Shown one piece after another: positions 36,705 to 54,156 of a stretch of 64,000 nt of DNA (the first letter of the stretch is position 1; each line of letters starts with the position of its first letter). Where the stretch lies: IMG/VR virus record IMGVR_UViG_3300042534_000747; one strand, written 5' to 3'. The translations under genes and the position numbers were made by a program. The DNA comes from a virus. The notes below the pieces were generated by a model that searched no databases, had not been told where the DNA came from, and saw only the letters and a program-made list of their open reading frames with translations.

Positions 36705-36722
36705 TTCTTTTTTTAGCAAACA

Positions 36723-36760: not shown

Positions 36761-37087
36761 AATATTATGGCAATTACAAATTATGAATATGAAGTTGTAA
36801 AGATTCCAACAATGTTACTTATTGGTAAAGAAACAGAAAAGGGTATTCAGTATGAAGATGAAATTGAAGGATTTAATGTGAATCTTGTAAGATATGAAAT
36901 TCATGATGATGGTGATAGAGTAATTGATTCTAGTGGTAGTATTACTCTGACTGGTCTTACAAAGGATGAAGAAGGTCAATTTGAAATGATTAAAAATATG
37001 ATTATAAATACATGTTGTATGTTTGGACAGCATGTTACAGATATAAGCAGGTTTGATTTTCATAAGATGTTTAGGAAAGATAACTAA
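36758..37087 (+). CDS. Hypothetical acidic protein
   Basis: Behind a promoter unit; true start likely the ATG after the RBS. Confidence 0.65.
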   Translation: MNIMAITNYEYEVVKIPTMLLIGKETEKGIQYEDEIEGFNVNLVRYEIHDDGDRVIDSSGSITLTGLTKDEEGQFEMIKNMIINTCCMFGQHVTDISRFDFHKMFRKDN

Positions 37088-37281
37088 TGTATGGAAAAGC
37101 AATAGATATGTTGTTTGATAAGGATTTTGAAATTAAAGAATTACTTGAATCTTTGATTGATGAAGTTAAAGATTCTAAAAATCCTTCTGAAAAGACATTA
37201 TGTGTTTTGGAAAAACATATGGAAAAAAATTCATTTGTAGCAGAATATTTGATTGAATATTATAAAAAGAATTCAAGATAA
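37087..37281 (+). CDS. Hypothetical protein
   Basis: TAATG coupling. Confidence 0.6.
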   Translation: MYGKAIDMLFDKDFEIKELLESLIDEVKDSKNPSEKTLCVLEKHMEKNSFVAEYLIEYYKKNSR

Positions 37282-37293
37282 GGAGTGGAGTAG

Positions 37294-37482
37294 ATGGAAA
37301 ATACAATGCCTGAAAATGAGCATGAAATGATGCTTATCATTAAAAAAGAGCTTGAAATGAATGGTGATATTGAAGATATTCTGGTTGACGATGGTGTAAA
37401 ATATCCAACTGGATTTTCAATAACTTTCAAAAATGGAAAAACATTCTATATTCATCCAGAAGAACTTGATTATGAGGTATGA
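37294..37482 (+). CDS. Small acidic hypothetical protein
   Basis: GGAG RBS. Confidence 0.6.
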   Translation: MENTMPENEHEMMLIIKKELEMNGDIEDILVDDGVKYPTGFSITFKNGKTFYIHPEELDYEV

Positions 37483-37703
37483 AAATGACTGAACATGTAG
37501 TATGGGAAATTATAAAAAAAGATGTATATACTGAAGAAGGTGTAAAGAAAATTGAAGATGTTTATGATGAACTCTATGAGATTTTCTATAAACCTTTGAA
37601 TCATACACCTAGAGAGAATGTACAGAATTATTTGGCATCGTTTAGTGAATTTTATAGTGAAGTATATTCTATCATGAGATATTTTTCAATGCAGAATGAT
37701 TGA
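37479..37703 (+). CDS. Small hypothetical protein
   Basis: ATGA coupling, GAGGT RBS. Confidence 0.6.
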   Translation: MKMTEHVVWEIIKKDVYTEEGVKKIEDVYDELYEIFYKPLNHTPRENVQNYLASFSEFYSEVYSIMRYFSMQND

Positions 37704-37730
37704 ACTATATTTTTTAAAAATGTGATTTAA

Positions 37731-38198
37731 ATGAAAAATAATGATTATATTTTTGAAGAAAGTGAAAGATTGTCCGAATGGTTAAAAGATAATCCAAATG
37801 CATATTCAAAAAAAATTATATCTGAAATGAAATCACTTGTTTCAGCTCTTGATGAATATTTTTTTGAAAATGCATATATTACAAATTCACTGAATATAGC
37901 ATTTGAATCAGAAAAAGCAGATGTATGTCATGTTTGCCATACAAAAAAAGACCTTATAAAGACATTAAGTGCAAAAATTTATTATTCAAGTGATAGATGG
38001 AATTATGCAAGATTACATCATGTAAAAATGATTGTTGCAAAAATTGCAGAACTTGATGGATTTTCAGATAGATTAATGAATAATGAAATTAGAAATATTC
38101 GTACAATTGAAGCTAAAAGGCGATATATAAGAATTGATGGTGAAAAATATAAAATAAGAACTGATTATAGAAGAATACAAAAAATGACAAGAGGTTAA
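37731..38198 (+). CDS. Hypothetical protein
   Basis: 155-aa co-oriented ORF. Confidence 0.6.
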   Translation: MKNNDYIFEESERLSEWLKDNPNAYSKKIISEMKSLVSALDEYFFENAYITNSLNIAFESEKADVCHVCHTKKDLIKTLSAKIYYSSDRWNYARLHHVKMIVAKIAELDGFSDRLMNNEIRNIRTIEAKRRYIRIDGEKYKIRTDYRRIQKMTRG

Positions 38199-38202
38199 AA
38201 AT

Positions 38203-39060
38203 ATGACAATAATTTGTTATCATCATGATGATTTAGATGGGATTGTAGCAGGTGCTATTGTATTGGAAGCAGAACGTAATGTAGAATTTATTGCTGTTAA
38301 TTATGGGGATATGTGGGATGAAGAGTTGGTGAAGGATGCTAAAGTTTATGTAGTTGATTTTAGTTTCCCTGTTATGATGAAATTGAAGGAATCTTGTAAA
38401 GAACTTGTATGGATTGACCATCATAAAACTGCAATGGAACAACAGATAGATGCATGGAATGATGAGGAAATCAAAGGGTTACGAAGTATGGAACTATCAG
38501 GTTGTGAACTTACATGGCAATATTTCCATAATGGTGAAAATGTACCACAGGTTGTAAAATATGTAGGTGACATGGATTTATGGGAGTTTGATTATGGAAA
38601 TGATACTAAACAGTATTGTGAAGCAGCTAAGTATATATTTACAACACCTGATGATTATTTGCTAGGTTTTATGCTAACTACTGGTCAACTTAATTTTGAA
38701 AAAGCAACAGAAATTAAAGAACAGGGAAAAATTCTTATTAAGGCAAAAGAAGAACGTGTTAAAAAAGTATTCCATAAAGGGATTGATATTTCATTGCAGG
38801 GTTATAGAGCACGTTTGATGAATACCACATGTGATACTTCTGAAGTAGGTGCTTATGTTTATACTATGCCTGAATATGATATGGCAGTGATGTATCAGAT
38901 AATAGGTAATGATGTTATATTGAGTTTTAGGTCAAATGTTGTTGATGTAGGTGAAATAGCTGAATCTTATGGTGGTGGTGGACATAAATTTGCATCAGGT
39001 GCAACAGTTGATTTTGAAATATTAATTGGTTGGTATAATACTTGTAAAAAGAATATTTAA
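38203..39060 (+). CDS. DHH/DHHA1 phosphoesterase (NrnA-like)
   Basis: HHDDLDG, VVDFS, WIDHH, DMDLW, SFRS, YGGGGHKFASG. Confidence 0.92.
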   Translation: MTIICYHHDDLDGIVAGAIVLEAERNVEFIAVNYGDMWDEELVKDAKVYVVDFSFPVMMKLKESCKELVWIDHHKTAMEQQIDAWNDEEIKGLRSMELSGCELTWQYFHNGENVPQVVKYVGDMDLWEFDYGNDTKQYCEAAKYIFTTPDDYLLGFMLTTGQLNFEKATEIKEQGKILIKAKEERVKKVFHKGIDISLQGYRARLMNTTCDTSEVGAYVYTMPEYDMAVMYQIIGNDVILSFRSNVVDVGEIAESYGGGGHKFASGATVDFEILIGWYNTCKKNI

Positions 39061-39075
39061 AAATGTAAAATTTAA

Positions 39076-39480
39076 GTGATAATTATGAAAATATGTATTA
39101 GACATAAAATTTGTGGAAATGATGAAGATTGTCAATATTTTATAAAGGGTACATATCCTGTTTGTTCATCATGTTATGCTGAATATCTGAATTTTAATTC
39201 TGCATTTTTAGACATTGGTGATTATAAAGATTCAGATGGTAATGAATTACCGTATTTTAAATATTTCAATATTGGTGTTTGTGAAATAAAAAAATATAAT
39301 GCCAATTATGGTGATGATAGAGTTTGTGTATGTGGACATACATATGACAGACATTTTGACTATTATGAAAATTATGCGGCAGTAGGTTGTAAATACTGTG
39401 GTTGTGAATTTGAAGAAGCAGATTCAAAAGAACGAATCATACGTAATGATGCATGGTCAATGGAACAAATAATTAAATAA
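39076..39480 (+). CDS. Cys-rich hypothetical protein
   Basis: CSSC, CVCGH..H, CKYCGC. Confidence 0.6.
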   Translation: MIIMKICIRHKICGNDEDCQYFIKGTYPVCSSCYAEYLNFNSAFLDIGDYKDSDGNELPYFKYFNIGVCEIKKYNANYGDDRVCVCGHTYDRHFDYYENYAAVGCKYCGCEFEEADSKERIIRNDAWSMEQIIK

Positions 39481-39501
39481 CAATTCATTTTTTAGCAAAC
39501 A

Positions 39502-39539
39502 TTTATATACTTTGACACCATTGTATAGCATTGTAGGTG
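39502..39539 (+). promoter_or_regulatory. Repeated promoter/RBS unit
   Basis: AGCAAACA-TTTATATA-N18-GCATTGTAGGTG. Confidence 0.75.
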
Positions 39540-39546
39540 TATTAAA

Positions 39547-39807
39547 ATGAATATAAATGATATAGTAGATTTTGCAAAGGAAAATGGTTTTGCCATTGTA
39601 CAGATTACAAATGAAGAAAATTTTTGTGCCGATTTTGACACGATTGTTTTTGAAAATGTAGACAGATATGTAAGTGTTGAAACAAGAAGAGGAAAAATTT
39701 CAGTCAATTGGTCTGCAATTGGTAATTCCAGTATTGGTGCTACAACTAATTTCATTCATAAAATGGAAATTGCAAAGGAAATTGCAAAGATGCTTCAGGT
39801 GCTATAA
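39547..39807 (+). CDS. Hypothetical protein
   Basis: Directly behind a promoter unit. Confidence 0.65.
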   Translation: MNINDIVDFAKENGFAIVQITNEENFCADFDTIVFENVDRYVSVETRRGKISVNWSAIGNSSIGATTNFIHKMEIAKEIAKMLQVL

Positions 39808-40316
39808 TGAAACTTTTTTATAAAGATGAAGCAGGTAGAATTGAAGATGTTATTGCTAAGAATTGCACATTTCCTAAAATGACAGGTCATGGTGGCAGGT
39901 CATGGGATATAAAAGATATTTACATAAATGATGTGAAATATAGATTTTATTATGATACTACATGGGGTAGAAATTATTATTTTGTGTATGATGGAAAAAG
40001 CTATTCAATAGATGTAATTGATTTCCCATCAAATAAATATTATACACTTTTGTCATATGCATATCATAATCAGGCAATTCCTTCTGAAATGAAAAATATA
40101 GATGATTTGAATTCTATGTTTTTTAATACAGTGTATGAGTTAAAGAGATATTCATATACAGATTTAAATGAAGCATTTGAGCATTTAGAAGATGTTTATA
40201 TTTTCAAAGATGATGTAATCACTGATATTGAATATTTTATGAGGATAGTTGAAAATCCAAATAAAGTACAAATTAAAATAATGAAGATATTGAATTTCAA
40301 TCGTGTAGAATTGTAG
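39807..40316 (+). CDS. Hypothetical protein
   Basis: TAATG coupling. Confidence 0.65.
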   Translation: MKLFYKDEAGRIEDVIAKNCTFPKMTGHGGRSWDIKDIYINDVKYRFYYDTTWGRNYYFVYDGKSYSIDVIDFPSNKYYTLLSYAYHNQAIPSEMKNIDDLNSMFFNTVYELKRYSYTDLNEAFEHLEDVYIFKDDVITDIEYFMRIVENPNKVQIKIMKILNFNRVEL

Positions 40317-40790
40317 GTGAATATTATGAATGTTGATTTAGAAAGTACAATAATTCAGATGGCAGAGTCAGTTGTTATAAATAATGAATTACCTGATTCT
40401 ATTTCTTTTACTATTAGGATGGAAACACCAATCTGTGAAATGCATGACGGTGAAAGATATTTTGAAGGGTCAGATTGCTCATTTTATCATATGATTTTCC
40501 ATACAAGAAGTAATTATGTTAAGGTGTATGCTGTGAAGTCAGAATCTATGTTTTATCCTGATATTGAAGATGTGCTTAAACTTGTTTCAAATCATGATTC
40601 AGGATGGCGACAGGACTCTTGGTATGACCTTAGAAAGATTGTAAGGGAAATCAATAATCCAGAATTGAGATTGAGTATTCAGAATGTAGAAATTTTCAAC
40701 TTAACAACTGAAATCGTACCTTGCAGTTACGAATATACATATAGATATAATCATCATCAAAAGACAATTGAAAAAAATAATTTAAATTAA
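40317..40790 (+). CDS. Hypothetical protein
   Basis: TTGTAGGTG RBS. Confidence 0.65.
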   Translation: MNIMNVDLESTIIQMAESVVINNELPDSISFTIRMETPICEMHDGERYFEGSDCSFYHMIFHTRSNYVKVYAVKSESMFYPDIEDVLKLVSNHDSGWRQDSWYDLRKIVREINNPELRLSIQNVEIFNLTTEIVPCSYEYTYRYNHHQKTIEKNNLN

Positions 40791-40815
40791 AATATAATTA
40801 TATAAAGGTGTATTT

Positions 40816-41199
40816 ATGAAAGCAATTTGTTTAAGAACTGGAAGAGAAGCTTCTTTGATGGAAACATGTAATTGTGCATTGAAAGTTAATGATAAAATAA
40901 TTGAATTTGATGAAATTTGTCAGGTTGGATGTGGATTTCTAAAAGAATGTCAGGAGTTCACAAATAAGGAAGCTCTTGAATTTGGCATAAGATTACATCA
41001 GATTATGGAAAAATGGAATTCCGATTTGTCATTTGAAACAGAATTGAATGAAGATACAGTAGATGAACTTGCTTCAAAATTGAAGGATGAGTTAGGTGAT
41101 TTGGCAATTATTTACGGTGTAATTTGGAATTTGAGAAAAGAACAACATGCAGTAAGATTGAATGAAGATTGCTATGATATGGCAAATTTGATGCTTTGA
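40816..41199 (+). CDS. Hypothetical protein with Cys motifs
   Basis: AAGGTG RBS. Confidence 0.65.
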   Translation: MKAICLRTGREASLMETCNCALKVNDKIIEFDEICQVGCGFLKECQEFTNKEALEFGIRLHQIMEKWNSDLSFETELNEDTVDELASKLKDELGDLAIIYGVIWNLRKEQHAVRLNEDCYDMANLML

Positions 41200-41240
41200 A
41201 GGTATATAAATAAAAACAGATAAACATAAAGGGTAATTAA

Positions 41241-41423
41241 ATGATATTTATTAAAAATTATGAAAAGTTTAGAGATGAAATTATTGATGTACTTAATAAA
41301 TCTGAAAAATTTGAAAAGATTTCATTAATTGCAGATGATATATTAAGAATTGAACTAAAAAATGAAGATAGAACGTTTAGTTTACACATTGGTGAAATAA
41401 ATCCAAAATATGATTTAAAGTAG
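41241..41423 (+). CDS. Small hypothetical protein
   Basis: 60 aa, co-oriented. Confidence 0.55.
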   Translation: MIFIKNYEKFRDEIIDVLNKSEKFEKISLIADDILRIELKNEDRTFSLHIGEINPKYDLK

Positions 41424-41432
41424 GTGTGAAAA

Positions 41433-41978
41433 ATGTCAGGTGGGAGTTTTAATTATTTGTTTGCTACAGATGGTATTGATTTGATTGATGAATGTAAATT
41501 GCGTTATATGAAAAAAATGTATCGTGAACTTATAGATTTAGGTATTCATGATGGTGCAAAAGAAACAAAAAAAATAATTGATGAAATGGAATTATTTGTT
41601 AAAAAATATGATAATACAATGGAAACTCTTAGTTCATTGTGGAAAGCAGTAGAGTGGGAATGTAGCGGTGATATTGGAGAAGATTCATTGAATGAAAAAG
41701 TTGCTGAATTTAGGAAAAATAAATATAATATAGATGTATTAAGTAAGAATTTTAAAATTAATGCTTATCAGTTTGATGGAACAAAAGCAAGTAAAGAAGC
41801 AATTTGTACTGTATTTCCTGATTTGGTGACAAGTTTCATAAAAGATGAAGAAAGTGATATAATTGAAATATGGGGAATATATATTGATTTTAAAAATGAA
41901 TGTTTATCACATCTTCAAAAAAATGATTGGATTTATCAAGATTCAAAAGGATTGTTCCATGTAGTTGAGTATTTTTGA
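41433..41978 (+). CDS. Hypothetical two-domain protein
   Basis: MSGGSFNYL start (recurrent phage motif) and C-terminal AYQFDGT..DWIYQDSKG domain. Confidence 0.65.
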   Translation: MSGGSFNYLFATDGIDLIDECKLRYMKKMYRELIDLGIHDGAKETKKIIDEMELFVKKYDNTMETLSSLWKAVEWECSGDIGEDSLNEKVAEFRKNKYNIDVLSKNFKINAYQFDGTKASKEAICTVFPDLVTSFIKDEESDIIEIWGIYIDFKNECLSHLQKNDWIYQDSKGLFHVVEYF

Positions 41979-41989
41979 GGTAGATTAAT

Positions 41990-42406
41990 ATGTATGATTT
42001 AGATGATGTAACACATATAGTTGATAAGTGTTTTAATTGTAAAACATTTTTTGTAAAAGGTAATATAATTTGGGAATCAATTATTGATAGAATGGGTAGA
42101 AAAGAAAAAGTTTTTGAAGAACCTTTTCGAGAAGATAATGAATGGGGAAGTATATATTTTTGCAATAAATGTAATGATAAACATTTGAATTTAGTTGGTG
42201 ATAAAGGAGATAAAGCAGTATGTAATTTGAACAATGATATTGATTGTGTGCAATGTTTTGAATGTGGTGAATTTATCACAGATTGTATAAAAAAGAACAA
42301 TATAGGTGTTTTGAAATTTGAAAAAGGATATATAGGTAATAGAGATGAACCTTCTGAAGATGGTTATATTTATTTTATTTGCATGAATTGCTTTGAAGCA
42401 ATTTAA
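41990..42406 (+). CDS. Zn-finger-rich hypothetical protein
   Basis: CFNC, CNKC, CFECG, CMNC. Confidence 0.65.
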   Translation: MYDLDDVTHIVDKCFNCKTFFVKGNIIWESIIDRMGRKEKVFEEPFREDNEWGSIYFCNKCNDKHLNLVGDKGDKAVCNLNNDIDCVQCFECGEFITDCIKKNNIGVLKFEKGYIGNRDEPSEDGYIYFICMNCFEAI

Positions 42407-42424
42407 TTCTTTTTTTAACAAACA

Positions 42425-42462
42425 TTTATATATGATTAATGTCTACATATGTATTGTAGGTG
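42425..42462 (+). promoter_or_regulatory. Repeated promoter/RBS unit
   Basis: AACAAACA-TTTATATA-N18-GTATTGTAGGTG. Confidence 0.75.
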
Positions 42463-42470
42463 TAATTAAT

Positions 42471-42629
42471 ATGTCAAAAAATCTTGTTGAACATTGTTTT
42501 GAATATAATGGTGAATTGGAAAGAGTTTTTTATGCAGGTGATTTGTGTAATTATTGTCATAATTGTCAAATATGGATACATATTAGGGCTTTGACTGAAG
42601 AAGAAAAAAAGTATGAATTTTGTGTATGA
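42471..42629 (+). CDS. Small Zn-finger-like protein (start revised from 42393)
   Basis: ATG 8 nt after the promoter-unit RBS; MSKNLVEHC..CNYCHNC. Confidence 0.6.
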   Translation: MSKNLVEHCFEYNGELERVFYAGDLCNYCHNCQIWIHIRALTEEEKKYEFCV

Positions 42630-42642
42630 ATAGGTGATTTAA

Positions 42643-43326
42643 ATGTATACTGAAGAAGAAATTGAAACATTAATTACAAGAGAAGCAATTAAAGATTATT
42701 TTTCAAAAGAAGGGAAAATGATTGTTTATTCTGATACTTCACATGTTATTGTAAATGATGATGAAGGCATTTTGGAAGAAAAGGAAATTGTAGGTATTAT
42801 TAATTGTTTTAAATTGAATGAAGAAAGCATTGTGAATGCTTGTGATATAGGTGATGATGTTTCACCAGAGGTTGCATTTATAACTCAAAAATTGTACAAT
42901 TATCAGCTTAATCAAAAAAATGCAATGGATTTATCTGAAAATTATTTGGATATGTGTTCATATGCATGTGATGAATTTCAAGATTATTGGAATATTGAAA
43001 TTGGTGATTATTGCCTTGATACAGGTGATATTTTGCTCATTGATTCAGATGAAAGAAAAGATTATGCAGAAGAATATGAATCTACATGGATTCCCAAACA
43101 AGACCAATTAATTAATATTGTGATGAATGAATGTAAAACGGATTGGTTTGGTGCTATTGGAATTGTTAGAGATTGGGTAGTGAATCCATCAAAGAAAGTT
43201 AAGAAGGCATATCCTAATATTTCTAAAAATAGAGGATTTGAAACTTTTGAACAAACAATAATGGCTTGTATCATGGAAATGTTTTTTGGCAAAATTTGGG
43301 TAAATGGAAATTGGAAGGATGTGTAA
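42643..43326 (+). CDS. Hypothetical acidic protein
   Basis: 227 aa; WIPKQDQL motif. Confidence 0.65.
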   Translation: MYTEEEIETLITREAIKDYFSKEGKMIVYSDTSHVIVNDDEGILEEKEIVGIINCFKLNEESIVNACDIGDDVSPEVAFITQKLYNYQLNQKNAMDLSENYLDMCSYACDEFQDYWNIEIGDYCLDTGDILLIDSDERKDYAEEYESTWIPKQDQLINIVMNECKTDWFGAIGIVRDWVVNPSKKVKKAYPNISKNRGFETFEQTIMACIMEMFFGKIWVNGNWKDV

Positions 43327-43617
43327 TTGATGGAATGGGAAGAAGAAATTTATTTCATTAAGGATAATATTGTTAGAAAATATAGTTTTGTTGCAGTACA
43401 TAGCAATGAACATTATGCTATTTATATGGGTGGTGGATGTGGTAATTATCCAATAAGAGTTTATCAGGATAAAACAGGAATGTATTCTACTGAAGAAATG
43501 GGTAAAGCTTATTTCAATGAAATTGATGCAATTGATTTTGCTATAGATGTACTTGAAAGAAGATTGGAAAGAATGAAGGAAAGAAAAGAAATTTATTTAA
43601 CTGAAAATCATGTTTAA
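43327..43617 (+). CDS. Hypothetical protein
   Basis: Coupled to neighbours. Confidence 0.6.
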   Translation: MMEWEEEIYFIKDNIVRKYSFVAVHSNEHYAIYMGGGCGNYPIRVYQDKTGMYSTEEMGKAYFNEIDAIDFAIDVLERRLERMKERKEIYLTENHV

Positions 43618-45052
43618 AATTATTGATGAAAATATAGATAATATAATTGGTAAAAAATATTATCTTTGTAAAATTAATTTGTTTGAATTAATTACAATTG
43701 TAAAAAATAAAATGGTAGATATAGACATTTCATCATTTAATCGTGATTTTTTAGATTTTAATGTGAATGATTATTATGAAACAGATAATGAAACACCTGA
43801 AAATAAAAAAATCAGAATTGAAGCAGAAAATAATGTAAAAAGATATAATGGAATTACTTTAACAAGTCCATATATAGATGATGGATATACAAGAGAAAGA
43901 ATAAATTATTTTAGTAATAAAAGTAAAAGCATAGAAAATGAATCAGAACATGGTTTTATTTTTAATTATGCAATTGAAAATAATTTTATATCTCTTTATT
44001 CAGAATCATTCAATGATGGGAAATTAGAAGGATATTTTTATTTATTGGATGGATATAGAAGATTACTATTTGATTTTAATACAATTGAAAAAAATATTGA
44101 TAAAGATGTGTATGTAAAAATCTATACTAATACTACTGAACAAGATATTATGGAATTGATGTTTGGGTTTAATATTTGGAAAATTCCACAAGGAATACAT
44201 GTTTGGTTTGATAGAGGATGGAGATTATTCATTTTTATGCATACTGGTATTTATTTAAGTCAGCAGCATTTTTATTTGTTAGATGAATATGTTGGTAGAG
44301 AATATATTAATTATAAAACATATGATGCACAAGAAAAAATAATTACATCTAAACAATTTTATAATGATATAAAGATTATTGATTATTTAGTTAATTGTGA
44401 AAAAATGCATCATTCAAAAGGTAAATATTTTAATTATGAATTTATTGAAAAATTAGGAAAGATAAGATTAAATGGCAATGAAAATTATTTAAATGTTGAA
44501 GATTGGATTCATTTTTTAGATTTAAAATATGAAGATGTTGATAAGATTAAAAGCATGACTGTTCACGGACATTATAATAAGAGAATTATATTGCTAGTGA
44601 ATGAATTCTTTGATATGTGGAAAAATCCAGAACTTATTGAAGAAATGAATACTGAAAAACCTAAATCAGTATCAAAAACGGTAATTGAAGATTTTTATTG
44701 GAATATTCCATCTTATGTAAGAAATGAACATACGATATCAATTATAAATGATGAATGTTTATATATTGATTGTGTAAATTATTATTATGAAAATAATAAA
44801 TTATATCAATATTCTACTTATAATAAATATAGTAACAAATACAGAGTATATTTAATATTTGATAAGTATAAAGTAATTAGTTATGATAAGGTTTATTATA
44901 TAATTAACAAAGATATGAAAATTAATTATGTAGATTTAGTATTTCATGATAATTATGTATTTAAAGGCTCAAAGGAAGAATTAATTATTAAAATTAAAGA
45001 AAATACTGGAAAGACATGGAAACCTAATACAAGATTGACTGAATTTTTATAA
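43610..45052 (+). CDS. ParB/Srx (DUF262-like) domain protein
   Basis: FYLLDGYRRL followed by ELMFGFN (DGQQR...F..lN-type pattern). Confidence 0.55.
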   Translation: MFKIIDENIDNIIGKKYYLCKINLFELITIVKNKMVDIDISSFNRDFLDFNVNDYYETDNETPENKKIRIEAENNVKRYNGITLTSPYIDDGYTRERINYFSNKSKSIENESEHGFIFNYAIENNFISLYSESFNDGKLEGYFYLLDGYRRLLFDFNTIEKNIDKDVYVKIYTNTTEQDIMELMFGFNIWKIPQGIHVWFDRGWRLFIFMHTGIYLSQQHFYLLDEYVGREYINYKTYDAQEKIITSKQFYNDIKIIDYLVNCEKMHHSKGKYFNYEFIEKLGKIRLNGNENYLNVEDWIHFLDLKYEDVDKIKSMTVHGHYNKRIILLVNEFFDMWKNPELIEEMNTEKPKSVSKTVIEDFYWNIPSYVRNEHTISIINDECLYIDCVNYYYENNKLYQYSTYNKYSNKYRVYLIFDKYKVISYDKVYYIINKDMKINYVDLVFHDNYVFKGSKEELIIKIKENTGKTWKPNTRLTEFL

Positions 45053-45063
45053 AGGTGATATAA

Positions 45064-45309
45064 ATGATAAGTTTTGATAATTTGTTTAATGGATGTGAAC
45101 CTGATGAAAAAGGTATATTTGATTGTGTAATTACTCAATTAACAGCAGAATCAAAAAATAAACCTGCTAGAATGACTATTAAAATACCTAAAGAAATATG
45201 TACAGATAATTTGAAAGATTTCAATAAATTTGAAGAAGATTATATTTTGACAATTGTTTGTATAAAAAAATCTGCAATTAATAGATTAACTATTAATGAT
45301 AAAGATTAA
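45064..45309 (+). CDS. Hypothetical protein
   Basis: AGGTGA RBS. Confidence 0.6.
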   Translation: MISFDNLFNGCEPDEKGIFDCVITQLTAESKNKPARMTIKIPKEICTDNLKDFNKFEEDYILTIVCIKKSAINRLTINDKD

Positions 45310-45335
45310 CCACCATCTTCTTTTTTTGAGATATA

Positions 45336-45373
45336 TTTATATACTTTGAATGCCTTGTATTGTCTTGTAGGTA
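45336..45373 (+). promoter_or_regulatory. Repeated promoter/RBS unit
   Basis: TTTATATA-N18-GTCTTGTAGGTA. Confidence 0.7.
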
Positions 45374-45379
45374 ATTAAA

Positions 45380-45733
45380 ATGATAAAAATAGAAACTCTT
45401 GGAAATCAGATAATGATGAACGGTGACTTTCTTTTTGATGTTGAAAAACATGTTGTGAATTTAGCAGGTATTAATATGTCTGTTGAAACTGATGAATTTG
45501 CAATTATTCCTTTGCCAAAATATGCACAGGATGAAATTAAAGGCTTGTTATATGATGATGCAATGCCTAATGAACTTAGTAGAGTAGAATCTATTATTAC
45601 AATTCTTGGCAATGAATTTCAGGATGTAGAAGGGGAAATAAAGATAATGTCAAATGGCATTCCTTATAGTATTATGCTATGTTTAGAAACAAATCTTAGA
45701 ATGCATAATTTTAAATTGGTATCTGTTAGTTAA
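45380..45733 (+). CDS. Hypothetical protein
   Basis: Directly behind a promoter unit. Confidence 0.65.
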   Translation: MIKIETLGNQIMMNGDFLFDVEKHVVNLAGINMSVETDEFAIIPLPKYAQDEIKGLLYDDAMPNELSRVESIITILGNEFQDVEGEIKIMSNGIPYSIMLCLETNLRMHNFKLVSVS

Positions 45734-45741
45734 GGGATTAT

Positions 45742-45954
45742 ATGTGTGAAAATTGTAATGACGAAGAAGATTTATATCAAAAAATAATAGATGTTGGAGT
45801 TATAGATTTAAGAATCAATCCATGTGAAAATGATTATTTTAAGGTAATTAATTGCACTTGGACTGATTATGTATTTGATTATGGTGGTTTTGGTGAGATA
45901 AAAGTTTTATGTAAAATATGTAATGAAATTAAAAATATTGATATAAGTGCTTAA
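45742..45954 (+). CDS. Small Zn-ribbon-like protein
   Basis: CENC...CKIC. Confidence 0.6.
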   Translation: MCENCNDEEDLYQKIIDVGVIDLRINPCENDYFKVINCTWTDYVFDYGGFGEIKVLCKICNEIKNIDISA

Positions 45955-45969
45955 AGTGGGTAAGATAAA

Positions 45970-46401
45970 ATGCATGATAGATATTTAGCAAGAGTTGATT
46001 CAAAACATTTCAATATTATGGATTTGATTGAATATATTGATGAAAATCAAATTAAATATGTTCATTTTGAAGTTGATGATATTGTAAAATCTGAATTGAT
46101 TGAATCTATTTTGCTAAGAATTTCAATAGGTGTATTTTATTTTGATATGAGAAATAATTGTGTTCTTGAAACATTTGATGGTAAAAAAAGAATTTCAGTA
46201 ATTCATGATTTTGTAAATGATAAATTTAAGTTGAATGGTATGAAATTTTTCCCTGAATTGAATGAATTATCATATAGTGAAATTCAGAGAGGTATACAAA
46301 GACGAATTGATGAGTATATGATTAATTATGAACTTATTGATATAGAAGTTCCAGAAGATATGAAGGAAATAATTAAGCAAAGAATGATAACTAAATTATA
46401 G
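45970..46401 (+). CDS. Short DUF262-like protein
   Basis: LIESILLRI..GVFYF..ETFDGKKRISVIHDF..F.L. Confidence 0.6.
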   Translation: MHDRYLARVDSKHFNIMDLIEYIDENQIKYVHFEVDDIVKSELIESILLRISIGVFYFDMRNNCVLETFDGKKRISVIHDFVNDKFKLNGMKFFPELNELSYSEIQRGIQRRIDEYMINYELIDIEVPEDMKEIIKQRMITKL

Positions 46402-46429
46402 ATAAGATTAAATAAAAAAGTGATTTATA

Positions 46430-46906
46430 ATGTCTTATATAAAATATGGTAGACGTTGGTTTATAACTCGACATGAAGCAGAAAAATACAATGAAAATGG
46501 AAAAAAGTTATATTTTGATAATGGAGAAATGGCATATTGTTTTATTAACAATGATGGTTCTTTTTGGAGAATTGATAATGAACTATTGACCAATAATAAA
46601 ATTTATGAACAGTATAAAATGTCAATTTCTGCTTGTTCACAATGTCGATTGGATATTGCTACATTTGAAATTGAACATATGATTCAAAAATTGAATAAAC
46701 TTATTATAAATATAAAATATGTTCATGAATATGAACAATTGGATTCATTAACTGAATATAAAAATGAAATTTATAAAACTGTAATCCCATATTATGAAAT
46801 TCTTTCTTATTTAAGAAAAAATAGATTTAATGTTCCAATAATTCAAGAAGAAGAAAATTATGGAATTAAAAATCGTGTAAAAGCATTTTTAAAAAAATAT
46901 AACTAA
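46430..46906 (+). CDS. Hypothetical protein
   Basis: 158-aa co-oriented ORF. Confidence 0.6.
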   Translation: MSYIKYGRRWFITRHEAEKYNENGKKLYFDNGEMAYCFINNDGSFWRIDNELLTNNKIYEQYKMSISACSQCRLDIATFEIEHMIQKLNKLIINIKYVHEYEQLDSLTEYKNEIYKTVIPYYEILSYLRKNRFNVPIIQEEENYGIKNRVKAFLKKYN

Positions 46907-46934
46907 TATTTTTCAATTCCTTTTTTTAGATACT

Positions 46935-46972
46935 TATTTATAGTTTGTATGCATTGTATATGATTGTAGGTG
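46935..46972 (+). promoter_or_regulatory. Repeated promoter/RBS unit
   Basis: TATTTATA-N18-TGATTGTAGGTG. Confidence 0.7.
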
Positions 46973-46979
46973 TATTAAA

Positions 46980-47159
46980 ATGAATATATATGATAAAATT
47001 GAAAAAATGTCTGATAATGATTTGTTGATTGTTTGGAATGGTCTTTTTCATGAATCATGGAATTGTGATACTATGTATGATGATGAATTTTCTATGGATG
47101 ATTGGGCACAAGGAATTTACAGTGAATTGAATAATCGTGAAATTGAATATAGGACATAA
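46980..47159 (+). CDS. 59-aa acidic protein missed by the ORF track
   Basis: MNIYDKIEKMSDNDLLIVWNGLFHESWNCDTMYDDEFSMDDWAQGIYSELNNREIEYRT*, 7 nt after the promoter-unit RBS. Confidence 0.7.
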   Translation: MNIYDKIEKMSDNDLLIVWNGLFHESWNCDTMYDDEFSMDDWAQGIYSELNNREIEYRT

Positions 47160-47161
47160 AG

Positions 47162-47545
47162 GTGAACATAATGATGATTAATGGATTTGAATTTATTGTT
47201 GAAGATGATATTTTAAATCTTACGTCAATGCTTGCTACAAAAGAGCAGCAGGAATTATGTGTTGTTGATTTAGATGATATTAGTAGGAGTCAAATAAGGG
47301 AATATATGACTTTCTATGAGATGCCTGATAATGAAGAAATTGAAAAAAGGGCATGGTATATTGTAAGAATTCTAAATGATTTGTGTGAAAGTGAAGATAG
47401 AAAGATTATGGTGTTAGTTGATTGTCCTCTTTGGTTTATGGAAACTTTCAAGAAATGGTTAATTAGTTATGATTTTATACCAATGTGTGAAGTTTATGGT
47501 ATAGTAGAAAATGAATGGGAATTTATGGGATTTAAGGAAGTGTAA
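47162..47545 (+). CDS. Hypothetical protein
   Basis: ILNLTSMLATKEQQ..LTFYEMP..EEIEKRA pattern. Confidence 0.65.
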   Translation: MNIMMINGFEFIVEDDILNLTSMLATKEQQELCVVDLDDISRSQIREYMTFYEMPDNEEIEKRAWYIVRILNDLCESEDRKIMVLVDCPLWFMETFKKWLISYDFIPMCEVYGIVENEWEFMGFKEV

Positions 47546-47548
47546 AGA

Positions 47549-48190
47549 TTGAATTTTAATAATATTTTAATTGATGAACATAAGGCAATTAAATTATTAT
47601 TAGATAAATCTAAATTAACAGAATTATGCATTAAAAGAATAAATGACAAAAAGGAGATAAAAATAAAATTTTATAATCAATATAGTAGGTATCATTCAAT
47701 TGAATTTTTTGAAAATAAAGTAAATGTATGTTTTATAAATGGGAAAAATAAAAAAATTTTTATACCCTTAATAATTGAAGAAATATTAATTGAAGGTCAA
47801 TCTTGGAAATTTTATTTAGATTATTTAAAAAATAAAAATAGTTTTTATCTTAAATATTTATTTGATTTGAAATCTAAATATAGTATAGTAATGTCATTTA
47901 AAATGGAAAAGGGAATAATTCATGAGAAAACAAAAAAATGTGCAATATGTTATATTGAATTAAAAACATTAAATACTAGTTATGATAAATTATATTGTAA
48001 AGATTGTATTAAACAAGTAAATTTAGAAAAAAGAGTAAATATGATATATATAAATCGTGATTCAGATATACATCCAAATAGTTCATTATGTAAGATATTG
48101 AAAACACATAAAGATGAATTTCATGATGACCCTGAAAGATTGACTACTGGAGATATGATGAGAATTATATATGGTGATGAAGATGAATAA
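47549..48190 (+). CDS. Hypothetical protein with Zn finger
   Basis: CAIC...CKDC. Confidence 0.55.
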   Translation: MNFNNILIDEHKAIKLLLDKSKLTELCIKRINDKKEIKIKFYNQYSRYHSIEFFENKVNVCFINGKNKKIFIPLIIEEILIEGQSWKFYLDYLKNKNSFYLKYLFDLKSKYSIVMSFKMEKGIIHEKTKKCAICYIELKTLNTSYDKLYCKDCIKQVNLEKRVNMIYINRDSDIHPNSSLCKILKTHKDEFHDDPERLTTGDMMRIIYGDEDE

Positions 48191-48470
48191 TGTTTGGAAA
48201 GATAAACTTTATATTTTTTTTCATGGTAAAATAACTGAATTTTATAAAGTGAATATAGTTGAAAATCAAACAGCTATATATAAAAATGAAAATGGTTTAA
48301 AATTATGTGTTAAGTATGATAATTATGGATATCATGCAGTGGGTTTTAAATATGTATTTATTTCATCTGAAAAAAATGATGTTATTGATAAAGTAACAAA
48401 TTATTGTGAAATGGAAATTAAGAATCTTGAATTGTATATTGAAAAAATAAAATGTTTGAAAGATATTTGA
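48171..48470 (+). CDS. Hypothetical protein
   Basis: Last gene of the plus array; stop abuts the convergent gene. Confidence 0.55.
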   Translation: MVMKMNNVWKDKLYIFFHGKITEFYKVNIVENQTAIYKNENGLKLCVKYDNYGYHAVGFKYVFISSEKNDVIDKVTNYCEMEIKNLELYIEKIKCLKDI

Positions 48471-48767
48471 TTATTTCTTTTTTGCATTTTTATATTCAGT
48501 CATTAATTCATTTTCTAATTCAGACATTAATTTTTTTAGTTTTTGTTTTACAAGTTTATTTACAAGCACTGTATCAGTTTCTTTTATATAAGGGCAGTGT
48601 TTTAAAACTGATTTTGTATTAAATTTATTATAATTAACTGAAATTGAATGGAATAATTGATGAGCTAAAAAATCACTATTTTCTTCTTTATATTTTCTAT
48701 CAAATTCCTTCAATTTTGCTTTACGTTCATCTTCATATGATTGTAATTCAGGTGCATTGTATTTCAT
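48471..48767 (-). CDS. Hypothetical basic protein
   Basis: 98 aa, own TATA upstream. Confidence 0.55.
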   Translation of the reverse strand: MKYNAPELQSYEDERKAKLKEFDRKYKEENSDFLAHQLFHSISVNYNKFNTKSVLKHCPYIKETDTVLVNKLVKQKLKKLMSELENELMTEYKNAKKK

Positions 48768-48859: not shown

Positions 48860-51658
48860 TTAGCGGATAGGGCAAGCTCCGCCTTCACATCCACTTTCTA
48901 ATAATTCATAGTCTACATTTTCTACTTCATATTTTGAAATTAATGAAGGGTCAAAAGGTTTCATGTTAGCAAGTCTTTCTTCATATTCTTCTTTAGTTAT
49001 TGATTCATACGGTTGGAGTGGATAGAATGAATCATCAAGTGATAAGAAAGATATTGCCACTACATCATCCCAATTATCCCATACCCATTGTTCAACTAAT
49101 TCCCATTCATTTTCACGTACATGAACAGTGATTGAAGTGTTATGTTGCACATAGTTTTCCATGAACATTTTATAGTTTTCAAGCTGTTGGAGTGCAGATA
49201 CATCATATTTTGTAATACCTTCAGGTGCTTTGACAGGGAATTCTATAACTTTAGTTGTGCAATTTTCTTCTGTTTGTCCTGTTTCTGCAAATATAGGATA
49301 TTCCAAATCTTCACAAACACGACATAGAGGGTCATGAGATGCTATTCTTACACGTCTGATGTAATATGGACTATGTGAATAGTGGACTCCTGATGATACC
49401 AGTGGTAGAAGTGACAGAGAACCTTCAGGTTTGACCGTAGTGACTAGTTTAGGTTGTGGTAGACCTAACTTATCAGCGTAATTATTTGCGGAGTCTGAAG
49501 CAGCTTTATTTAGGCTTTTCAAAAGTTTCTTTTCTTCTTCTCTAGATAGGTTGAGAGCATTGACTATGTCCTGCCATCCAGTGAGTGAACATCCTGTGAG
49601 TTTATCTCTATGTAGAATTTCATTCCATTCAGGCATTTCCATTTCAACACAAGTCATTCTATAGCCCATTTTAGCAGACAATCTTTGAGCATTAAGTAAT
49701 CCTTCAATGTCAAGCTTGCCATCTTTTACAAAAGCCATTATATTGACAGTTGTGAGGTTACATGTTCCCTTATTGTCAAGAAGGATTTCACCACATGGGT
49801 TACATCCATTTGCATCATATCTTCTTTTTCTTGCAGCTTCAAGATTCATGAATGCAGGTTCACCAGAATAACGCATAGTCTTTATGTGCCAATTCCACTT
49901 TTCTCTAGTTGGTTTTGATTCATAGATAATTGTGTTATTTGACATTCTTCTATGAGATATTTCATCATTAATTACAAAATCATTACCTTGTTGAATATAG
50001 AGATTTGTTTTTGCATTAATACATTCTTCATCATCTGAATCAATGAGCACTATTTCTGATGTATTATGGGTTAAAATTCCTTCACATATGAAACAATGAT
50101 TATTTTCAACTGATATATCATAAGTTTCTTCTATTTCACCTGTATAAACAACTTCTTTTACAGTGATAGGAATTAATTTTTGAATTATATCAATTGATTT
50201 AATATAATTAGATAATTCTAAATTTTTAACATCTTTTGCATCAGGAATTGATACTAATCTATCATCAGGTTTAATATCCTTTGCCATTTTCCATTCATAC
50301 TTATCAATGTCTGTCATTATTGCCATTCTATGTTTATCAGTACATCTAAATTTACCAAATTGATGTTTTATAGTGACAATTTCTTGTTTACCTTGATATA
50401 CAAAATCAATAACATTTTGGTATCCATCGTCTGTAAGTACTTGCATACCTGTTTTAACATTCTCTATTGGAATCAAACCATCTTTGGTATGAACCATACT
50501 ACCTTCAGGTAAACATCTTCTTACTCCACCGCTTACTACATTTTCACCTATGATGTTAGCAATATCCATGCAGTTGATAGGTTTGAGTTTAAATGTTGTT
50601 GAATCTGCAACAATAGATGCTTTTTTAATTATTTTGTTGATTTTAACAAACATTGTTTTTAGGGATTCATGACCTGATGCAGTTCCACCAAACTTCTTTA
50701 ATTTCATACCTTTTGGTCTTACAAAATCATAATTCATTCTGATGGTTTTTATGTTCTTATATTCAGGTTTAGTAATTAAATCAAAATATGTTTGTAGAGC
50801 TTCAGACCAACCTTCTTTTGAATCTCCAATTGTGATTAAGACCATATCATTAGATTTAAAATCAATTGATGTGTTGTCACATTTGTTTTCAATTGTGTAT
50901 GTATAATCTTCATGAATTAATTCATGATTATAACGTACTTTAGGCAATCTTATAACATCTGATTTTAGGATTCTAATGCCTACTCCTGAACCTACCATAA
51001 GCAGATAGAAAAGTTCAATGAAATCACTGAATTTATTTATTATTTGAAAAGCACAATTATAATTAGACATAGGGTATTCATTTGCTACTGAAGTTCCACC
51101 TACCCATAGGGTTCTACCTGATGGAAATTGCCTAAGATTGAAGATATTGTCAAATATTTTTTCAGCTTCATCTTTTGTTGTGGGTGCAAGTGAACAATTA
51201 TATTCTACTGCCCTACGAATTGTTTCATACCATGTTTCCCTTCTACCTTTTTCTTGAATGAATCTGGAATATGTTCTGTAGTAAATGAATTTACCTAATT
51301 CAGATTCCATCGGCAAAGGTAAATGTTTGTATTTTGAAATGAATTCATCAGTGAGCAGTTGATTTTTTACAGGTTTACAGCATGTTCTTTCTTTAGCTCT
51401 TTCATCTCTATATCTCATGTATCTTCTTGCAGTTTCGATAAGGTTGTTTGCAAGGAGTTCTTTTTCAACCATATTTTGAATTTCTTCAACATCTACAATT
51501 TCTGTATCAATAGTTTCTTCAATCTTTTTTGCAATATCATATGCAATAGTAGTAGTAAATTTTTCAGATGATGTAGATTTAGCTAACATTATTACAGCAA
51601 TAATTTTTAAACCATCAAATTCAACTAATCTACCATCACGTTTTTTAATCATAGACAT
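48860..51658 (-). CDS. nrdJ: Class II (B12-dependent, monomeric RTPR-type) ribonucleotide reductase with ATP cone and intein
   Basis: ATP cone IKKRDGR; YYRTYSR, PSGRTLW, NYNC, NPCGEI, CNL, TVKPEGSLS, C-terminal CEGGACPIR. Confidence 0.95.
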   Translation of the reverse strand: MSMIKKRDGRLVEFDGLKIIAVIMLAKSTSSEKFTTTIAYDIAKKIEETIDTEIVDVEEIQNMVEKELLANNLIETARRYMRYRDERAKERTCCKPVKNQLLTDEFISKYKHLPLPMESELGKFIYYRTYSRFIQEKGRRETWYETIRRAVEYNCSLAPTTKDEAEKIFDNIFNLRQFPSGRTLWVGGTSVANEYPMSNYNCAFQIINKFSDFIELFYLLMVGSGVGIRILKSDVIRLPKVRYNHELIHEDYTYTIENKCDNTSIDFKSNDMVLITIGDSKEGWSEALQTYFDLITKPEYKNIKTIRMNYDFVRPKGMKLKKFGGTASGHESLKTMFVKINKIIKKASIVADSTTFKLKPINCMDIANIIGENVVSGGVRRCLPEGSMVHTKDGLIPIENVKTGMQVLTDDGYQNVIDFVYQGKQEIVTIKHQFGKFRCTDKHRMAIMTDIDKYEWKMAKDIKPDDRLVSIPDAKDVKNLELSNYIKSIDIIQKLIPITVKEVVYTGEIEETYDISVENNHCFICEGILTHNTSEIVLIDSDDEECINAKTNLYIQQGNDFVINDEISHRRMSNNTIIYESKPTREKWNWHIKTMRYSGEPAFMNLEAARKRRYDANGCNPCGEILLDNKGTCNLTTVNIMAFVKDGKLDIEGLLNAQRLSAKMGYRMTCVEMEMPEWNEILHRDKLTGCSLTGWQDIVNALNLSREEEKKLLKSLNKAASDSANNYADKLGLPQPKLVTTVKPEGSLSLLPLVSSGVHYSHSPYYIRRVRIASHDPLCRVCEDLEYPIFAETGQTEENCTTKVIEFPVKAPEGITKYDVSALQQLENYKMFMENYVQHNTSITVHVRENEWELVEQWVWDNWDDVVAISFLSLDDSFYPLQPYESITKEEYEERLANMKPFDPSLISKYEVENVDYELLESGCEGGACPIR
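50063..50515 (-). mobile_element. 151-aa mini-intein in NrdJ (no homing endonuclease)
   Basis: GGVRR|CLPEGSMVHT...block B FRCTDKHR...YDISVENNHCF..THN|T; +1 residue Thr; no LAGLIDADG motifs. Confidence 0.92.
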
Positions 51659-51738
51659 TTTTTTACTCCATTAAAATTAGAACAAGTCAATTGATGTAAT
51701 GCAATATATATAAATGTATTGTAAAAATAGAAAGAGTA

Positions 51739-53391
51739 TTATTGATAAATACTCTTAAATTTATTATATTTAACAATTAATTCATCTGATGTTGTCAATT
51801 CATTGCCTTTTATGGTAGTGATATTGTCAGTTGAATCCATTACAAAAAGAGTTAATATTCCATCAATTTTCTTTACAATGTAAGTTTCTTCTAATTCTTC
51901 AATTCCATTATTAATTATAACATCTTCCTTCATTTCAATAATTTTAGAACTTATTGTTTCATACATTTCTTCAACTACATTTTTATCTTCTTCAATAGGT
52001 TCAATGATTTTTTCTTCAATAGGTTCAGGTTCTTCTATTGGTTCAGGTTCTTTGATAGGTTCAATAATTTCTTCTTCATCTAATTCTGATATATCAGGTA
52101 ATATTGGAACATTTGAAGATATTTCAGGTGTTTCCTGATGTGGCATTTTTAAAATTATTGAAGGTAAATCATTATCATATGCCATCAAAATTACATTTTT
52201 TATAGTTTTAATGTTTTCAATTTTAATAATAGTTTCAATATTATTGTTTGTGAATTCATTGAATTGAGATTGAAGCAGTATTATATCATCAAATTCTAAT
52301 TCATCTGTAAATGAATCTGTAAATGGAGATGCAATTAAAGATGTAATTTGTGAATTAATGGGTGATGAATTAGGAAATATTGTAGTTAATTTGGAATCTT
52401 TAAATTTATTGAATGGTTTAGCTCTTCCATCAATTCTACAAGATTCTCTCCATGCTAAATCATTAATAAATTTAGATATATTCTTTAATGTTGCAACTAC
52501 ATCATTTTTAGATTTCAATTCTAATTGATTCAAAACTTCATTAATTCCTATAATATTTAGATAAATAGGTAATGTGTTTTGCATATTCTCTTCTATTTCA
52601 GATGTAGGATAATGCAAATTTTGAGCATACCATTTTAACATTTGAACTGATGTTTCAACATATTCTCTAAGTATTTTATAGTCAAAACTATTATCTTCAT
52701 TGATTATTGAACTGATATTCAAATGTCCTGAAATAATAGATGAATTTTGATTAAAAAAATATCCATCATATGAAGGTATTACTATTTCATTTTCAAATGG
52801 ATGATATGCTTTTAAAATATCTTCAAAATAACAATTTATGTTAATGGGTGAATTAGATAAAGCATCAACTAAATCCTTTGAATTTAATATTTTCTTAACA
52901 CCTTCTTTAGTGTTAGTTGTATTGAAAGTACTATCTTTTTTGATGGCAATAGTTGTTTGTTCTGTGAATAAAATTGCCTTTTTATAATCAGTAGAATCAA
53001 GATTTATGAATTTTATAATATCTGGATTATCTGATTTCATTACAAATTGGTAATATTCTTCTTTAAATGCAATTTCAGATAAAGATGCAATTTTATTTAT
53101 AAAAGAAATATTATCTATGAGAATTGATAATTTACATCCAGTTACTTTTCTAAATAAATTCATATTTTGGTTATAATCTTCTTCAGTAAGAATATATGAA
53201 TTTGGAATTCCATCTACTGCATATGAATTAGGTATGAATATTCCATTTTTTATAATGCTATAAAATTCTTCTTTTTTATCAATGCTTACAATGATAGTTT
53301 CAGCAACTTTATTAGAAAAATCATCCCAACGTTCAATCTTATTAATTTCTGAATATGTATCTATTAATTTTTTAGTATATTCATTCATCAT
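51739..53391 (-). CDS. Degenerate ribonucleotide-reductase-like protein (catalytic cysteines absent)
   Basis: Collinear RNR barrel relics ERWDDF..VA, EEFY..FIPNS, DNPDIIKFI, GHLNIS, FDY..L..YV, YP..EI, LLQSQFNEF..NNI, AYDNDL; no SAC/NPCGE/CNL; E/P/I-rich linker. Confidence 0.65.
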   Translation of the reverse strand: MMNEYTKKLIDTYSEINKIERWDDFSNKVAETIIVSIDKKEEFYSIIKNGIFIPNSYAVDGIPNSYILTEEDYNQNMNLFRKVTGCKLSILIDNISFINKIASLSEIAFKEEYYQFVMKSDNPDIIKFINLDSTDYKKAILFTEQTTIAIKKDSTFNTTNTKEGVKKILNSKDLVDALSNSPININCYFEDILKAYHPFENEIVIPSYDGYFFNQNSSIISGHLNISSIINEDNSFDYKILREYVETSVQMLKWYAQNLHYPTSEIEENMQNTLPIYLNIIGINEVLNQLELKSKNDVVATLKNISKFINDLAWRESCRIDGRAKPFNKFKDSKLTTIFPNSSPINSQITSLIASPFTDSFTDELEFDDIILLQSQFNEFTNNNIETIIKIENIKTIKNVILMAYDNDLPSIILKMPHQETPEISSNVPILPDISELDEEEIIEPIKEPEPIEEPEPIEEKIIEPIEEDKNVVEEMYETISSKIIEMKEDVIINNGIEELEETYIVKKIDGILTLFVMDSTDNITTIKGNELTTSDELIVKYNKFKSIYQ

Positions 53392-53544
53392 TTCATTTCC
53401 TATTTTTTGATACAGAACAAATAATGGCTTTTATTATATATAAGTCAATTGGTTGAATGGGTATTATTTTACTGAAATTTAATAAACTTTATATAATATG
53501 AGTGACATTCGTTGAACAATATTATAAACTAGAGGCATATATTA

Positions 53545-54156
53545 ATGATTAAAAATAGTTATATTCAAAAAATTACAAAATGTATAAGTTTAATATTTGT
53601 TATTTTGTCAATATTATTAACTATTCCAATTGTTGCATATGGTTTTGAAATACCTTACACCTATGTAAATGCAGTTGGTGAAAAAATTGTATTGATAGAT
53701 AATGAATCTGCTACAAATCCAACATATGATGAATTAGTTGAATTTATTCATGAAGATGAAACTGATAAAATATTATATGTTTATGATGAATATATGTGTG
53801 CAGATTTTGCAAAAGAATTACATGATAATGCTGAAGAAAAAGGAATTAGAGCAGGTTTTGTATTTATAGGATTTGAAAATAAAATAATAGGACATGCAAT
53901 CAATTGTTTTAATACTAGTGATAGAGGTTTAGTGTTTGTAGATTGTTGTGGTACTACTGAAATTGTAATTAATGATAACTATGATAAAATTGCATATGTT
54001 GAACTTGGTAAAGAATATGGAATGGTTTCAATGCAATATACCAATGATACTAGTTATGAATATTATGATTTAAGAAAAGATTTTAAAAGTGATAGAAAAG
54101 GATTTTTTGAAACTTTTGGAAATGTAAAAAATATAAGAATTTTTTGGGAAATGTAA
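53545..54156 (+). CDS. Secreted papain/transglutaminase-fold Cys protease-like protein (paralogue 2)
   Basis: Signal/TM; YMCADFA, GHAINCFNT, FVD; strongly similar to 35583-36185. Confidence 0.7.
   Translation: MIKNSYIQKITKCISLIFVILSILLTIPIVAYGFEIPYTYVNAVGEKIVLIDNESATNPTYDELVEFIHEDETDKILYVYDEYMCADFAKELHDNAEEKGIRAGFVFIGFENKIIGHAINCFNTSDRGLVFVDCCGTTEIVINDNYDKIAYVELGKEYGMVSMQYTNDTSYEYYDLRKDFKSDRKGFFETFGNVKNIRIFWEM

Follow-up and report, generated by a model that had tools for sequence, protein, structure and literature searches.

DNA precursors are made de novo by ribonucleotide reductase (RNR) alone, and it is common for viruses to encode an enzyme of their own. To our knowledge, dead RNR large subunits that have taken on new jobs occur in herpesviruses only. 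The herpesvirus R1 proteins are of class I descent, belong to viruses of animals, and bear their host-interaction motifs (for instance, RHIM) in N-terminal extensions; we know of no working RNR in betaherpesvirus genomes. Among the small subunits, yeast Rnr4 is a dead paralog that partners the active Rnr2. UL45 of HCMV and M45 of MCMV are inactive betaherpesvirus homologs of R1 (PMC5469499), and BORF2 and ORF61 are moonlighting herpesvirus R1s (PMC12282084). UL45 and M45 act against RIPK signalling, and BORF2 acts against APOBEC3B (PMC5469499, PMC12282084). In Pseudomonas aeruginosa, NrdJa and NrdJb are one class II RNR cut into two complementary pieces (PMC4520616). The literature searched yielded no account of a dead RNR from a virus that infects bacteria or archaea.

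The locus analyzed here lies in a 64-kb stretch of AT-rich DNA (26% G+C), referred to as the window. It contains a gene for an RNR homolog that has lost its catalytic residues, P0001, followed on the same strand by a gene for an active RNR of another subtype, P0002. The features of the two genes and their surroundings are the following.

48860-51658, minus strand: active RTPR-type NrdJ (P0002, 932 aa) with ATP-cone, RNR_Alpha, and insertion domains
50063-50515, minus strand: mini-intein (residues 382-532) interrupting the NrdJ gene; the NrdJ of the relative described below lacks it
51659-51738, minus strand: intergenic spacer of 80 bp; GGAG precedes the NrdJ start
51739-53391, minus strand: dead RNR homolog (P0001), whole ORF, 550 aa plus stop, ATG start
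51742-51897, minus strand: C-terminal beta-beta-beta-alpha domain of P0001, residues about 499-550, with a conserved 'KKIDGI' hairpin
51898-52131, minus strand: acidic E/P-rich disordered linker of P0001, residues about 421-498
52132-53391, minus strand: RNR alpha core of P0001, residues 1-420, an N-terminal all-alpha part and an alpha/beta barrel, shortened by deletions
52714-52806, minus strand: former finger-loop and strand F region of P0001, residues 196-226
53197-53199, minus strand: Ser65 codon of P0001, at the position of the first redox-active Cys
53392-53544, minus strand: region upstream of P0001, common to the divergent gene at 53545-54156 (plus strand)

P0001 is a true, very diverged homolog of the RNR alpha subunit. 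Its residues 222-336 match the Pfam model of the RNR barrel, PF02867, with 33 bits (E 3.5e-8; gathering threshold 23.9 bits), and the Pfam model of the N-terminal all-alpha part matches weakly; a PHROGs search with P0001 gave no match. The two-member alignment of P0001 and its relative P0003 was compared by hhalign with a profile of nine dimeric NrdJ sequences, giving a probability of 99.1% and E 4.7e-19, with query residues 17-416 aligned to RNR profile positions 29-554, which cover the whole enzyme core. All ten relic motifs listed in the initial annotation are present in the translation, and in this alignment they fall in order on the matching motifs of the nine enzymes. Against PDB sequences, the two-member profile found no match and the single sequence of P0001 a chance match only.

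Structural comparisons lead to the same fold. The AF2 model of P0001, which leaned on RNR sequences included in its alignment, has pLDDT 70-90 for residues 1-350 and matches human R1 and T. maritima NrdJ with Foldseek E about 1e-16. VIA-align superimposes model residues 1-420 on T. maritima NrdJ and yeast R1 with Z 27-28 (382-391 residues aligned, rmsd 2.8-3.1); the final three strands of the barrel have low model confidence and are poorly conserved. The single-sequence model of the ESM Atlas, a check independent of the RNR alignment, matches clusters of B12-dependent RNRs over residues 2-429 with TM 0.66-0.70. Absence of the ten-stranded barrel had been named beforehand as the observation that would overturn the RNR assignment; the barrel was found in profile and structure comparisons alike.

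The subtype is indicated by the NCBIfam models. P0001 scores 40 bits with NrdJ_Z, 40 bits with another B12-RNR model, and 23 with class I NrdE/NrdA, while neither RTPR (TIGR02505) nor the insertion domain PF21995 matches it at E <= 1. Since the best scores are those of dimeric class II models, the earlier assignment to the dimeric class II type stands, but its qualification as 'archaeal-type' is not established: the nearest placeable real RNRs by sequence are from bacteriophage-like contigs, and the structural Z-scores are tied between class I and class II. All NCBIfam RNR scores of P0001 are far under the equivalog cut-offs (for instance, 40.1 bits against a curated cut-off of 399.95 for the dimeric NrdJ equivalog TIGR02504), and P0001 and P0003 constitute a new two-member family in the RNR alpha superfamily, outside every functional RNR equivalog. 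RNR-like proteins of unclear function have already been catalogued, as is seen from the NCBIfam model NF005401 (PRK06948), 'ribonucleotide reductase-like protein', of 604 positions, which P0001 does not match.

The catalytic and allosteric elements were followed through motifs (SACF, NPCGE, CNLGS, the GGG loop, QGG.RRGA of loop 2, and APTGT) whose identities we take to be established RNR knowledge. The first redox Cys, part of 'SACF' in active RNRs, is replaced by Ser65 in P0001, and 'NS' is invariant in both family members. The NPCGE finger-loop stretch reads HPFENEIVIPSYDG, with a gap, in P0001 and YPFANKELLMP in P0003; the thiyl-radical Cys and the Asn and Glu of N-x-C-x-E are absent from P0001. 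The 'CNLGSINL' strand has become ISGHLNIS, with Ile/Ser-Gly-His at the position of the second redox Cys. Loop 1 (GGG.G / LRP.G) is gone through a 14-residue deletion, loop 2 (QGG.RRGA) reads FKEEYYQ with a 4-residue deletion in the profile alignment, and the APTGT phosphate loop is ASPFTDS. Cysteines occur in P0001 only at positions 86, 187, and 318, with none in residues 188-317, and in P0003 at 167, 223, 240, 369, and 515; in the alignment of the two proteins no Cys is common to both and none stands at the three catalytic positions. The reported absence of the NPCGE motif and the redox cysteines is thereby confirmed. A homolog retaining the catalytic Cys would have spoken against a dead enzyme, and the sole full-length homolog, P0003, is equally dead. 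As judged from these replacements, P0001 is a pseudoenzyme, radical initiation, re-reduction, and canonical effector binding being lost in both known members; in particular, since loops 1 and 2 are deleted, its canonical dNTP effector site looks lost.

In addition to the reduced core, P0001 carries two parts whose gain had been proposed in the initial annotation and which are real by composition, pLDDT, and a model of the domain folded alone. The linker (residues about 421-498, ~80 aa) is 28% Glu and 12% Pro, with pLDDT < 40, and its EPIEEP repeats are encoded by an 18-bp DNA unit present 2.9 times in tandem at 52012-52063, where slippage may alter the linker length. The C-terminal domain (residues about 499-550) folds alone into a beta-beta-beta-alpha structure with pLDDT 88. 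It is conserved in P0003, and no stretch of the entire protein is more conserved than its first hairpin, 'KKIDGI'. The domain has no match in Pfam, a best Foldseek E of 0.16 in PDB, and no significant match in the Atlas, where the structures retrieved are uninformative small domains; it is absent from the other ORFs of the window and loci. Derivation of the domain from the TSCPD/zinc-finger tail that dimeric NrdJ carries was considered and ruled out (hhalign probability 0.3%).

The relative P0003, a protein of 540 aa, was the one full-length match in a HMMER search of 1.84 billion representative proteins (E 6e-24). It is 25-29% identical to P0001 and has the length, linker, and C-terminal domain in common with it. 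The other 26 HMMER matches are mostly ordinary RNRs, aligned over residues ~115-380 with E 1e-10 to 1e-3. Pfam alone finds no match in P0003. The best-conserved segments of the pair are the barrel-core strands, the region of the former finger loop, and the 'KKIDGI' hairpin; residues 181-230, the former active-site segment, are among the most conserved, and the alphaA/alphaB region, with 15-25% identity, is among the less conserved. P0003 is encoded on a 183-kb contig with direct terminal repeats, rated complete, 18 bp upstream of a gene for a 782-aa ATP-cone RTPR-type NrdJ (locus L001, 11642-13990).

Further searches did not enlarge the family. Neither P0001 nor the two-sequence alignment retrieved anything in word-indexed protein searches, which low-complexity words had probably swamped, and tblastn found no match in 50,697 phage records. 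A pattern scan based on the family alignment retrieved only the 183-kb contig from the viral collection and nothing from the metagenome and genome collections; a pattern scan with a conserved neighbor protein led to the same contig only. In 13 viral and 80 bacterial loci, no P0001-like gene was found within 6-8 kb of a related NrdJ. Among the HMMER matches, the metagenomic proteins P0009, P0011, and P0015 (615-660 aa) have an ATP-cone and an NrdJ-like part without the NPCGE cysteine and without the first redox Cys. P0009, for instance, has 'SASEGQ' and 'LSTEF', yet scores over the NrdJ_Z equivalog cut-off (437 against 400 bits). By their motifs, these three look like another dead-RNR family that annotation would call an enzyme.

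The existence of the P0001 gene does not depend on the homology searches. At the composition of the window, the stop-codon probability is 0.087 per codon, so that one stop is expected per ~12 codons, and 551 open codons would arise by chance with P about 2e-22 (base composition); the longest open run in 2000 shuffled versions of the region was 122 codons. P0001 is maintained by selection, since its frame has been kept open since the split from the P0003 lineage. The initial annotation had taken the intact frame itself as a sign of selection, and this finds support in a second member, likewise dead, with the same length, architecture, and position at 25-29% identity. The P0001/P0003 pair is saturated for dN/dS, and the two available copies of P0003 (L001 and L002) are identical in protein. 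Catalysis was lost before the split, since P0003 shares with P0001 the inactivity, the architecture, and the position directly upstream of an RTPR-type NrdJ.

The neighboring NrdJ, P0002, keeps NPCGE and the C-terminal Cys pair, has the PF21995 insertion domain, and scores over the NCBIfam RTPR equivalog cut-off (357 against 340 bits). No pairwise similarity between P0001 and P0002 is detectable; together with the RTPR subtype of the neighbor, this agrees with the earlier remark that P0001 is not its recent duplicate. The mini-intein of P0002 (~151 aa) was recognized by the Pfam Intein_splicing and NCBIfam intein C-terminus models; it begins with Cys after 'GGVRR' and ends with HN before T. 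P0002 is 60-67% identical to chromosomal NrdJ proteins of Clostridia and other Bacillota (loci L017-L096), and at about 60-63% identity the NrdJ of the 183-kb relative is only as close as these Bacillota genes. The closeness to clostridial NrdJ, while the PolB of the window is nearest to that of haloarchaeal viruses, suggests that NrdJ was acquired across domains.

Because of the 80-bp spacer, each of the two genes in the window may carry its own promoter. The 10-mer CAATTGACTT occurs in exactly two copies in the 64-kb window, at 51684-51693 and 53442-53451 (minus strand), 25 nt upstream of the NrdJ start and 50 nt upstream of the dead RNR start, respectively. About 0.3 exact matches are expected from base composition, and the one-mismatch count is at chance level; conservation of the 10-mer does not extend to the region preceding the pair in the 183-kb relative. 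Of the words sampled from the stretch of the two genes as a whole, 43% also occur in a sediment metatranscriptome of a different study, which is a weak hint that this stretch is transcribed.

The window and the 183-kb contig represent two distantly related virus-like elements of ~180-200 kb, in which the pair of dead RNR and NrdJ is intact while the flanks have changed. Thirteen proteins of the relative's 21.6-kb locus, including a membrane module, have partners in the window at 25-63% identity, with the order partly conserved. Most other shared proteins are 27-45% identical, compared to 25-29% for the dead RNR, which since the split has diverged as constrained proteins of these elements ordinarily do. 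A ~14-kb plus-strand block, which is a rearrangement or an insertion, separates NrdJ from the Sak4-like block in the window, the two being adjacent in the relative. The block at about 34000-48500 (plus strand) has a GC skew of +0.29 to +0.48 and ORFs without family matches. The window encodes PolB, a clamp loader, a helicase, an ATP-dependent ligase, and a Sak4-like protein, its PolB being nearest to those of haloarchaeal tailed viruses (27% identity), and the relative's locus carries PTH2 and ERCC4 genes. Taken together, the replication genes, the PolB affinity, and PTH2/ERCC4 make an archaeal host plausible; they are consistent with such a host but are not proof of it. In L001, an IS605 OrfB/TnpB (Cas12f-like) gene is situated at 19948-21087, a few kb downstream of the relative's RNR pair.

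We tentatively suggest, with a probability of roughly 0.4, that P0001 serves the element's own dNTP-supply machinery without catalysis, as an accessory protein or a tether. Produced from the gene pair that also yields NrdJ, it would act via protein-protein contacts rather than chemistry, and could hold or modulate NrdJ or link it to replication proteins. An adaptor-like role is suggested by the architecture, in which a flexible acidic tether of 80 residues joins a rigid body of RNR shape to a small conserved beta3-alpha head. The pair also stays together despite different flanks, and P0003 is separated from its NrdJ by only 18 bp. On the other hand, the two genes may lie side by side in both elements simply through common descent and overall synteny rather than coupling, the family has only two known members, and NrdJ needs no such partner, since about 90 loci with a 48-67% identical NrdJ are without any. 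The form of the contact is also constrained. In RTPR-type enzymes the insertion domain fills the place of the dimer partner, and, as the neighboring NrdJ has this domain, a classical alpha-alpha heterodimer of P0001 with NrdJ is unlikely.

Alternatively, the dead subunit might be a host-directed decoy or inhibitor that binds a host protein, either a dimeric RNR or a defense factor, which we regard as possible but doubtful. In one form of this explanation, P0001 would pair with the host dimeric RNR via retained alphaA/alphaB helices and so disable the effector site of that enzyme. The core of P0001 indeed belongs to the dimeric type, whereas the active enzyme of the element is of RTPR type, and a host-directed role would account for this; helices are modeled at the alphaA/alphaB positions, with loops 1 and 2 deleted, and the fact that NrdJ elsewhere does without such a partner fits a target other than NrdJ. 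Viral R1 homologs with host-directed roles are documented and provide a real precedent (PMC5469499, PMC12282084), and the structural matches of the P0001 model include the BORF2-APOBEC3B complex 7rw6. However, the alphaA/alphaB region is weakly conserved between the two members (15-25% identity), blocking the host RNR would bring no obvious gain, and no known anti-defense protein motif was found in P0001 with Pfam and PHROGs. That P0001 poisons or re-tunes the host dimeric RNR through crippled heterodimers, or neutralizes a host defense acting on nucleotide supply, is rather unlikely; if true, it would be the first RNR-derived host-acting pseudoenzyme of a prokaryotic or archaeal virus and an independent parallel to herpesvirus R1.

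An improbable alternative is a ligand carrier or sink: the barrel would have kept its affinity for adenosylcobalamin or a nucleotide, without turning it over, and would act as a cofactor chaperone, buffer, or sensor for NrdJ. The neighboring NrdJ is AdoCbl-dependent, and the conservation of residues 181-230, where the active site used to be, would be in line with ligand binding. However, the deletion of the specificity-site loops argues against a dNTP sink using the canonical effector site, the APTGT phosphate-binding motif and the N/C/E triad are replaced, and both conservation and model quality are poor for the last three strands, which in NrdJ form the lining of the cobalamin pocket.

Still less can be said for a functionless leftover, that is, an ancestral dimeric NrdJ displaced by the acquired RTPR-type NrdJ and now decaying. 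P0001 adjoins the gene that would have replaced it, the family is so diverged that Pfam misses P0003, and NrdJ itself looks horizontally acquired, judging from its 60-67% identity to clostridial proteins in an element whose PolB is nearest to haloarchaeal viruses. Yet frames of 540-550 codons are open in both lineages in DNA of 26% G+C, each with the chance probability of about 2e-22 given above, and they have survived a divergence that left the syntenic proteins with 27-45% identity. P0001 and P0003 are still significantly similar and have the linker and C-terminal domain in common, where neutral sequence would have decayed, so that this explanation is close to refuted. Finally, that the RNR scaffold now supports an active enzyme of some other chemistry is hardly credible. 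Conserved residues do cluster near the former active site (PF.N.E, LNI, DY), but there is no conserved Cys and no glycyl-radical or metal-binding motif, and the family matches RNR only.

A selected dead copy of class II type beside a B12 enzyme of another subtype suggests that the dNTP supply of viruses involves an extra layer, be it of control, of tethering, or of host manipulation, and P0001 and NrdJ make up a small, well-defined protein pair for testing. Pfam alone would annotate such dead proteins as 'ribonucleotide reductase'.

Among enzymes, P0001 is most conveniently compared with T. maritima NrdJ (1XJE/3O0O; TIGR02504), with which it has in common the fold from the N-terminal helices to the last barrel strand (VIA-align Z 27, ~388 residues aligned, rmsd 3.0-3.1). 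In contrast to dimeric NrdJ, its core is ~150 residues shorter and lacks the TSCPD/zinc-finger tail, and the linker and beta3-alpha domain are present. The NrdJa/NrdJb system resembles the locus in having two adjacent class II RNR-related genes, but here P0001 and NrdJ each span the full core and the downstream NrdJ is complete alone. Rnr4 provides a precedent for a dead RNR paralog as the partner of an active one; it differs in being a beta subunit and a close paralog that forms a heterodimer, whereas P0001 and NrdJ are of different subtypes without pairwise similarity. With UL45 and M45, finally, P0001 shares an RNR alpha fold without catalytic residues kept in a viral genome, and the use made of these herpesvirus proteins is protein binding. 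Unlike them, P0001 is of class II type, belongs to a prokaryotic (probably archaeal) element, has a working RNR encoded next to it, and bears its extension at the C-terminus.
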